A stretch of 64,000 nucleotides of DNA from Octopus vulgaris (taxonomy: Eukaryota), in NCBI GenBank assembly GCA_951406725.2, contig OX597828.1:12586001-12650000 (forward strand), written 5' to 3'. The notes beneath the pieces are model-generated. The model searched no databases, was not told where the DNA came from, and saw only the letters and a program-made list of their open reading frames with translations. Shown piece by piece: positions 45,662 through 46,430 of this stretch; the first letter of the stretch is position 1; each line of letters opens with the position of its first letter. The position numbers were made by a program, and so were the translations under genes.

Positions 45662-46430
45662 TTTACAAGATAAGGGCAGAAGAAAAATTCTAATGCCAGA
45701 TACGCCGAAACAAAAGAAATTGTCGATAACCATTAAATTTATGCGTCTCGAAATAAACCGATAGAAATCTCTAAAAAATTCGTTATTACCGTATTGGTCC
45801 ATGTTTTTTTTTTTTTTTTCGGCGTATCTGGTATTAGAATTTTTCTTCTGCCCTTATCTTGTAAATTATGTATAAATTTTACCTTTAAAGGCATTTTTTG
45901 ATATGCTGGCCATTGATAAACATTTTTTCCCGAAAAAAATTTTATCCTATATTTAATTATAAATACATTAGTGTTTCACTTCCGGATTCTATCACTCTGT
46001 GAAAGTTTCTAGTTCGAATCACACGTGTCTTGAGGTGCGCCGAAGATTTTTCTATTTGGATATATTTGGAGTACTTAAGTCTGCTCGGGACTTGGCGCTT
46101 GCTTCTTCCGTGGGTATGTATAAGTATTTCATTTATATCTCGCGTATGTACCGCTGAAGAGGGGAAAATTTCTTGTGAATTAACCCCGAAATTGGACCAA
46201 TACGGTAATAACGAATTTTTTAGAGATTTCTATCGGTTTATTTCGAGACGCATAAAATTAATGGTTATCGACATTTTTTTTTGTTTCGGCGTATCTGGCA
46301 TTAGAATTTTTCTTCTGCCCTTATCTTGTAAATTATGTATAAATTTTACCTTTAAAGGCATTTTATGATATGCTGGCCCTTCATAAAAAAATTTTTCCCG
46401 AAAAAGTGTTATCCTCTATCAATTATATAT
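45662..46430 (+). mobile_element. non-coding hammerhead retroelement (Penelope pLTR-like/retrozyme-like), 467-nt unit with inverted 5' segment
   Basis: 45662-45801 is the reverse complement of 46193-46332; 45804-45960 is directly repeated at ~46275-46427 (offset 467); flanked by (TA)n; contains an HHR. Confidence 0.8.
46149..46207 (+). ncRNA. type I hammerhead ribozyme, intact core
   Basis: TACCG-CTGAAGA-GGGG..CCCC-GAAA-TTGGACCAA-TA-CGGTA; predicted cleavage after A46202. Confidence 0.85.

Follow-up and report, generated by a model that had tools for sequence, protein, structure and literature searches.

Introduction

Non-LTR retrozymes, as described by Cervera and de la Pena in 2020 (PMC7229834) and in a preprint by Li, Clavereau and Pollet (10.64898/2026.07.22.740005), are non-coding, AT-rich, self-paired units of a few hundred bases that carry a type I hammerhead and occur in many copies. 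The units range from 51 to 972 bp in the preprint and from 150 to 450 bp in PMC7229834 (350-390 bp in mussels). The criteria for such elements also include tandem dimers or multimers in which every unit has a complete hammerhead, self-cleavage, linear and circular RNAs of unit length in tissues, and the lack of a primer binding site or polypurine tract. Dependence on Penelope-like elements (PLEs) is proposed in both sources, and the preprint makes the case for animal retrozymes being non-autonomous derivatives of PLEs; it also reports that one of nine predicted Xenopus elements cut. Non-autonomous PLEs are described in Chlamydomonas (PMC8557442). Retrozymes, their proposed dependence on PLEs and non-autonomous PLEs are all, therefore, already published.

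PLE insertions are described as taking the form of partial tandems next to an inverted copy that is truncated at its 5' end; one end is extended, and the targets are microsatellites (PMC8557442). As reported for an anole PLE (PMC11167929), the protein cuts AT-rich DNA on both strands, reverse transcription starts internally at two sites downstream of the hammerhead, and uncut RNA is used, hammerhead cutting being dispensable. A count of the repeats of O. vulgaris gave 190 Penelope-like families (PMC13282606).

Here we describe an insertion of 1.3 units plus an inverted fragment, at positions 45662-46427 of a 64-kb stretch of Octopus vulgaris DNA (hereafter referred to as the window). It is most likely a non-autonomous, retrozyme-like PLE passenger. 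The retrozyme traits found at the locus are a type I hammerhead motif, a short, non-coding unit of low GC content (criterion <45-50%) and predicted self-pairing, and the family has many copies. The unit, at 467 nt, is slightly longer than the range of PMC7229834. Amphibian retrozyme hammerheads work as dimers according to the preprint, as is predicted for the octopus motif; the locus, with its single hammerhead, is a 'monomer' in the terms of the preprint rather than an 'active' dimer. It also has an inverted 5' copy of the PLE type and two 3' ends, features not found discussed in the accessible parts of the retrozyme papers. With the hammerhead PLEs that carry an endonuclease (Penelope/Poseidon, Neptune, Nematis and Hydra; PMC8557442, PMC11167929), the element shares the pseudo-LTR, the adjacent inverted 5'-truncated copy, an apparent extension at one end, the microsatellite target and a 3' end downstream of the hammerhead. 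Unlike these PLEs, it has no ORF for a reverse transcriptase (RT) or a GIY-YIG endonuclease; its extension is ~90 nt, as against the usual 30-40 nt (PMC8557442), and its hammerhead has a 19-nt loop II and a full palindromic helix III, which the minimal PLE form lacks (PMC6155905). Non-autonomous PLEs of the Chlamys group (for example, MRC1 of Chlamydomonas; PMC8557442) are likewise short non-coding passengers, which form pseudo-LTRs and insert head to tail, but they are algal, Chlamys elements mostly lack canonical hammerheads, and the likeness of these passengers to autonomous 3' ends has been demonstrated. The octopus element resembles a non-LTR retrozyme in its workings and a PLE in its mode of insertion; it is a candidate member of the retrozymes.

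Structure of the insertion

The features of the locus, in window coordinates, are as follows.

45630-45661, no strand: (TA)n-rich left flank and target microsatellite, read from the sequence; a target-site duplication is unreadable in (TA)n.
45662-45801, minus strand: inverted 5'-truncated copy of 46193-46332 (3 mismatches in 140), its outer (3') end ~90 nt short of the main 3' end.
45800-45819, no strand: head-to-head junction, with CA common to both sides, then TG and a run of 16 T; putative 7-nt microhomology at the original join.
45804-45960, plus strand: upstream partial repeat, pseudo-LTR-like, 5'-truncated before reaching a second hammerhead.
45804-46270, plus strand: one 467-nt non-coding unit (GC 33%), predicted to be strongly self-paired on the plus strand; continuity seen in the family.
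46025-46054, plus strand: 5' strand of a predicted 27-bp interrupted stem enclosing the hammerhead (mean pair probability 0.97-0.99).
46058-46140, plus strand: side rod beside the hammerhead, a fold prediction.
46149-46207, plus strand: type I hammerhead motif with palindromic helix III, predicted cut between 46202 and 46203; a double-hammerhead dimer is predicted to be favoured.
46221-46251, plus strand: 3' strand of the enclosing stem, a fold prediction.
46271-46427, plus strand: downstream repeat, ending at the common 3' end of the family (equivalent to ~45953-45956); putative start of reverse transcription, ~220 nt past the cut.
46423-46440, no strand: (TA)n right flank; next to it lies a host repeat (46441-46630) that has 14 further matches within the window.

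A preliminary description of this DNA had reported an inverted 5' copy, a segment (45804-45960) recurring 467 nt further on and (TA)n on both flanks, and all three were borne out. The reverse complement of 45662-45801 agrees with 46193-46332 at 137 of 140 positions (E 9e-68 within the window), the direct repeat (45807-45968 versus 46274-46434, spacing 467) is 90% identical, and (TA)n is present on either side of the insertion. The inverted arm indeed ends within helix III: it stops at 46193 and includes 10 nt upstream of the predicted cut, where ~9 nt had been given. The 3' end of the insertion was placed at ~46422-46427, where it merges into the TA run (a small correction to the previous annotation), giving two 3' ends at the locus, 46332 and ~46422, 80-90 nt apart. 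The GC content of the 467-nt unit is 0.33-0.35.

The arm and the 3' copy differ at three positions, with the arm carrying the majority letter of the family at 46257 and 46274. Both carry a rare A at 46240, a position occupied by G in 96-99% of the aligned contig depth, consistent with the derivation of the arm and the 3' copy from one event. At the rate quoted in PMC13282606, their divergence (~2%) would put this event a few million years back. Between the two direct copies there are differences at 2 of 95 positions and then at 12 of 52 (Fisher p 7e-5). At the head-to-head join, the continuation of the arm past 46193 and the arm's version of 46272-46278 share seven letters in register; a match of this extent was found in 0.14% of arbitrary head-to-head pairs within the unit. 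This 7-nt microhomology is a hint only, because just two of its letters survive at the present junction.

The hammerhead motif and the predicted fold

The hammerhead consists of a helix I of five Watson-Crick pairs (46149-46153 with 46203-46207), the core CTGAAGA at 46154, a GGGG/CCCC helix II with its 19-nt loop, GAAA at 46188, and a helix III formed by a palindrome with a one-base centre; cutting is predicted after A46202. The perfect 5-bp helix I and the GGGG/CCCC helix II noted previously are both present, and the motif was the sole match to a strict type I descriptor in the 64 kb, with no match in any of 30 block-shuffled windows. No Rfam hammerhead family scored at the locus, even at E 10. 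The monomer is predicted to be marginal, with a catalytic fold at -12.9 kcal/mol versus a minimum of -13.9 kcal/mol and, in full context, pairing probabilities of ~0.06 for helix III and ~0.4 for helix I. Two hammerheads are predicted to co-fold as a double hammerhead (-33.3 kcal/mol), and the motif is predicted to cut mainly as a dimer. One hammerhead is present at the locus, and the public contigs are too short to contain two.

Folded as a circle, the plus strand of the unit reaches ~-109 kcal/mol (z -3.5 and -3.1, for two circular permutations against 40 dinucleotide shuffles), with z-scores of -0.7 and 0.2 for the minus strand. In this prediction, the interrupted 27-bp stem (46025-46054 with 46221-46251) encloses the side rod and the hammerhead. 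Among the 25 listed family variants within 45964-46270, 14 fall on paired positions, of which 8 keep the pair and 6 break it. For listed variants with a share of at least 0.4 in X1 or X3 (two of the sequencing runs described below), eight of nine keep the pair, and in five of these eight a G-U pair becomes Watson-Crick (rough p 0.004, post hoc); a pair-breaking variant at 46088 lies just below the threshold (share 0.39). No two-sided (compensatory) change in paired positions was found among the listed variants. As the common variants mostly keep or improve pairs, they show that the source element was better paired than the present copy, which does not imply selection for the stem.

Coding capacity

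The earlier statement that the element has no meaningful ORF stands. A stop-free frame of 121 codons (46003-46365) was considered as a coding sequence and rejected: it has no match to a Pfam family and no relative among 1.84 billion proteins, and it is crossed by common family indels that are not multiples of three (46054, 46193, 46258 and 46275). No coding signal was found in 45960-46150. No RT or GIY-YIG domain was detected in 91 frames at 39.5-52 kb or in 88 frames elsewhere in the window, these being the frames that passed a low-complexity filter from a set of 658 stop-free frames of at least 45 codons; the two Pfam matches obtained with the scanned frames were both under Pfam's cut-off. 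The ORF with RT and GIY-YIG endonuclease that defines an autonomous PLE was not found at the locus, and the element is not such a PLE.

Sequences surrounding the insertion

The insertion sits in the TA run at the end of a common interspersed repeat (46441-46630) present at 14 other places in the window, with ~82-86% likeness among the best copies; it is a putative tRNA-derived SINE. A frame within this repeat matches seven proteins, five of which are named Octopus; such frames are spurious. On the other side, short single-copy AT-rich pieces between TA runs (45404-45640) separate the insertion from a second hammerhead-bearing segment (44690-45143), which is single-copy and flanked by (TA)n. 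The latter contains, on the plus strand at 45076-45121 and 30 nt before a (TA)n tract, an unrelated minimal type I hammerhead-like motif with a core change (U4C) and a predicted cut after 45112. The relaxed descriptor used for this motif also matched once in each of 2 of 30 shuffled windows, and a fold other than the catalytic one is predicted as the minimum. The motif is likely to be a remnant of another Penelope-type family. Further away, the window contains a remnant of a Tc1/mariner-type DDE transposase (42679-42984, plus strand; 50-60% identical to two longer transposase-domain proteins) and two head-to-tail dimers of a 183-185-bp repeat (4759-5129 and 22182-22547).

Copies in public sequencing runs

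Part of the stretch was found in 20 of the 24 public sequencing runs listed, under four organism codes. The contigs of four runs were aligned at 80% likeness to 45804-46430, yielding 2939 matching contigs in X1 (~76% of which was read), 2344 in X3, 79 in X7 and 51 in X19. X7 and X19 are RNA by guess only, and we draw nothing on expression from them. The details given below concern the 24 of 366 loose ends, 40 of 130 variants and 32 of 5459 pieces listed, no one of these pieces spanning the stretch. Exact-pattern scans of metagenome and viral contigs gave no match in either set. The preliminary description would have been contradicted by a single-copy unit, a possibility at odds with the contig numbers in X1 and X3. 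Contig counts, together with a summed depth of up to 5-7.5e5 versus 25-95 for the listed single contigs of X1 and X3, lead us to a rough figure of thousands of copies, the summed depth itself being no copy number.

Among the loose ends listed, (TA)n follows 45953 in 38 (X1), 31 (X3), 2 (X7) and 1 (X19) contigs. Position 45953 maps to ~46422 in the downstream copy, the main 3' end of the insertion; in X19, two contigs stop behind 46341, close to where the inverted arm ends (46332). Loose sequence also precedes 45975 in 14 and 16 contigs and corresponds to the 3' end of the unit itself, with 24 of 30 letters identical to 45943-45973 and one gap, in a count by eye. This end-to-start junction recurs in diverged copies of X1, X3 and X19: it is bridged by X1 record 1 (45898-46022, 9 differing letters) and X19 record 9 (45922-46018), X19 record 10 is continuous over 45955-46205, and overlapping diverged contigs among the listed pieces tile the whole unit. 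Since the end of the unit runs back into its own start in other copies, the permuted ~467-nt unit is a trait of the family. Depth at the junction is low (~700 in X1, versus 144,000 at 46016), and similarly low values occur within the unit (757 at 46051); summed depth declines from the 3' part towards the unit start.

Three of the eight joints listed switch strands, each in one contig: 45955|46280, 46125|46312 (overlap 3) and 46149|46208 (overlap 5, corresponding to helix I). No joint listed for the four runs corresponds to the junction of the present locus. With this junction included, two of four inversion points touch the ribozyme, too few to call clustering. Splicing across the hammerhead, from a donor-like site at 46114 to an acceptor-like site at 46223, was also considered and is not supported: contigs cross the region unspliced, and no spliced joint was seen in X7 or X19. 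Two contigs (X19 record 12 and X7 record 30) match 46100/46142-46237 and continue for 344 and 402 letters past 46237; these continuations could be a coding partner or relative, or plain flanks.

Insertion mechanism and alternative explanations

The PLE-type traits of the locus are the partial tandem with pseudo-LTR, the inverted 5'-truncated copy by the 5' end and the microsatellite target bias. Because this layout matches the published signature of PLE insertion, the element is most likely a non-autonomous PLE passenger, and the earlier reading of the direct-plus-inverted pseudo-LTR arrangement as a Penelope signature agrees with the account in PMC8557442. A PLE RT/GIY-YIG protein acting in trans would nick both strands of the (TA)n tract, and two cDNAs would be primed internally on an RNA of more than unit length. 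The first would start at ~46422-46427 and, over ~620 nt, would copy the hammerhead and part of the preceding unit; the second would start at ~46332 and extend for 140 nt, and the 3' ends of the two would be joined head to head via a short microhomology. The most likely template would be linear and uncut, transcribed from copies in tandem or partial tandem. The hammerhead, as a predicted dimer cutter, would process tandem transcripts, its cutting not setting the ends of this insertion. We give this entire sequence of steps, with a linear template, an even chance of being correct.

The template must be longer than one unit, because the end-to-start junction recurs in diverged copies. It must also have been uncut or re-ligated, given that both cDNAs cross 46202/46203. 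Cleavage was considered as the reason why the arm stops within the ribozyme; we reject this cause, as the arm itself crosses the cut, as does the main copy, and the three other joints lie elsewhere. The proposal that the permuted copy came from a circular or multimeric RNA holds as regards the longer-than-unit template, but the layout is no special sign of a circle: a permuted copy of more than unit length is an ordinary PLE product, and circular and linear tandem RNAs would leave the same DNA.

A full retrozyme cycle, in which dimeric hammerheads cut tandem transcripts, ligation closes the 467-nt monomer into a circle and this circle is copied by a PLE RT over more than one turn, is somewhat unlikely here. 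It would accommodate the closed ~467-nt unit of the family, the strong self-pairing and low GC content, as in retrozymes (PMC7229834), and the intact hammerhead core with its predicted dimer; the X1 joint at 46149|46208, with its overlap at helix I, allows a copy starting at the cut product (46203), and circles have been demonstrated for the coral, mussel and axolotl units (PMC7229834). However, the locus has a single hammerhead, no multimer was seen in contigs too short for two hammerheads, and mutation of the hammerhead left insertion undiminished in the anole PLE (PMC11167929). The 2/95 and then 12/52 differences between the direct copies are also unlike one pass round one circle, but this is weak evidence, because the stretch is indel-rich and variable across the whole family. 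We regard as doubtful the still more specific claim of a high-copy octopus retrozyme forming 467-nt circles via a dimeric hammerhead, with insertions bearing the full Penelope signature (head-to-head inversion, two internal starts and TA targeting).

Still less probable is a derivation of the locus from an ordinary coding PLE, three 5'-truncated pieces of whose end would be stacked here, with the 467-nt spacing accidental in this insertion or a few descendants. Such truncated ends are the commonest PLE insertions (bioRxiv 10.64898/2026.07.22.740005), PLEs make up 6.83% of the O. vulgaris genome (PMC13282606 supplement), and the drop in summed depth towards the unit start would be expected, with 24 of 366 loose ends listed. 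An accidental spacing is, however, difficult to reconcile with an end-to-start junction recurring in diverged copies of three runs and overlapping diverged contigs covering the whole unit, and a coding source with the lack of coding signal in 45960-46150 and with a loose end before 45975 that, alone among those listed in this region, is the unit's own end. A later DNA-level rearrangement producing the inverted arm, or misassembly of a repeat lying between TA tracts, would fit the absence of the exact junction from the joints listed and the finding that the best run contains only 0.55 of the sampled words. Yet the arm has majority letters at 46257 and 46274 while sharing the rare A46240, and inversions of a like kind occur in other copies, making this explanation highly improbable.

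Implications

We found no report in the literature of a hammerhead element in an octopus or other cephalopod; Repbase, Dfam and the library of PMC13282606 may list the family under another label. No ribozyme term occurs in the consulted portions of the PMC13282606 supplement or of PMC8967140. Cephalopods are unmentioned in the accessible retrozyme literature (PMC7229834, the supplement of which may list more species, and 10.64898/2026.07.22.740005), and neither octopus nor mollusc appears in the available text of the latter. A circle-making octopus retrozyme with the Penelope signature, if true, would be the first cephalopod retrozyme; it would constitute direct architectural evidence of PLE enzymes copying retrozyme RNA and offer, in its 467 nt, a minimal substrate for PLE integration, a step that is still unsolved.

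The octopus repeat content would be partly re-labelled, with no new kind of system opened, and a family of thousands of copies would allow the mapping of start sites, inversion points and microhomologies. In the literature consulted, animal retrozymes are linked to PLEs by the hammerheads they have in common, by their co-occurrence and by similarity of sequence. A unit that lacks an ORF but has inversions and end points specific to PLEs supplies a further line of evidence, the anatomy of its insertion.
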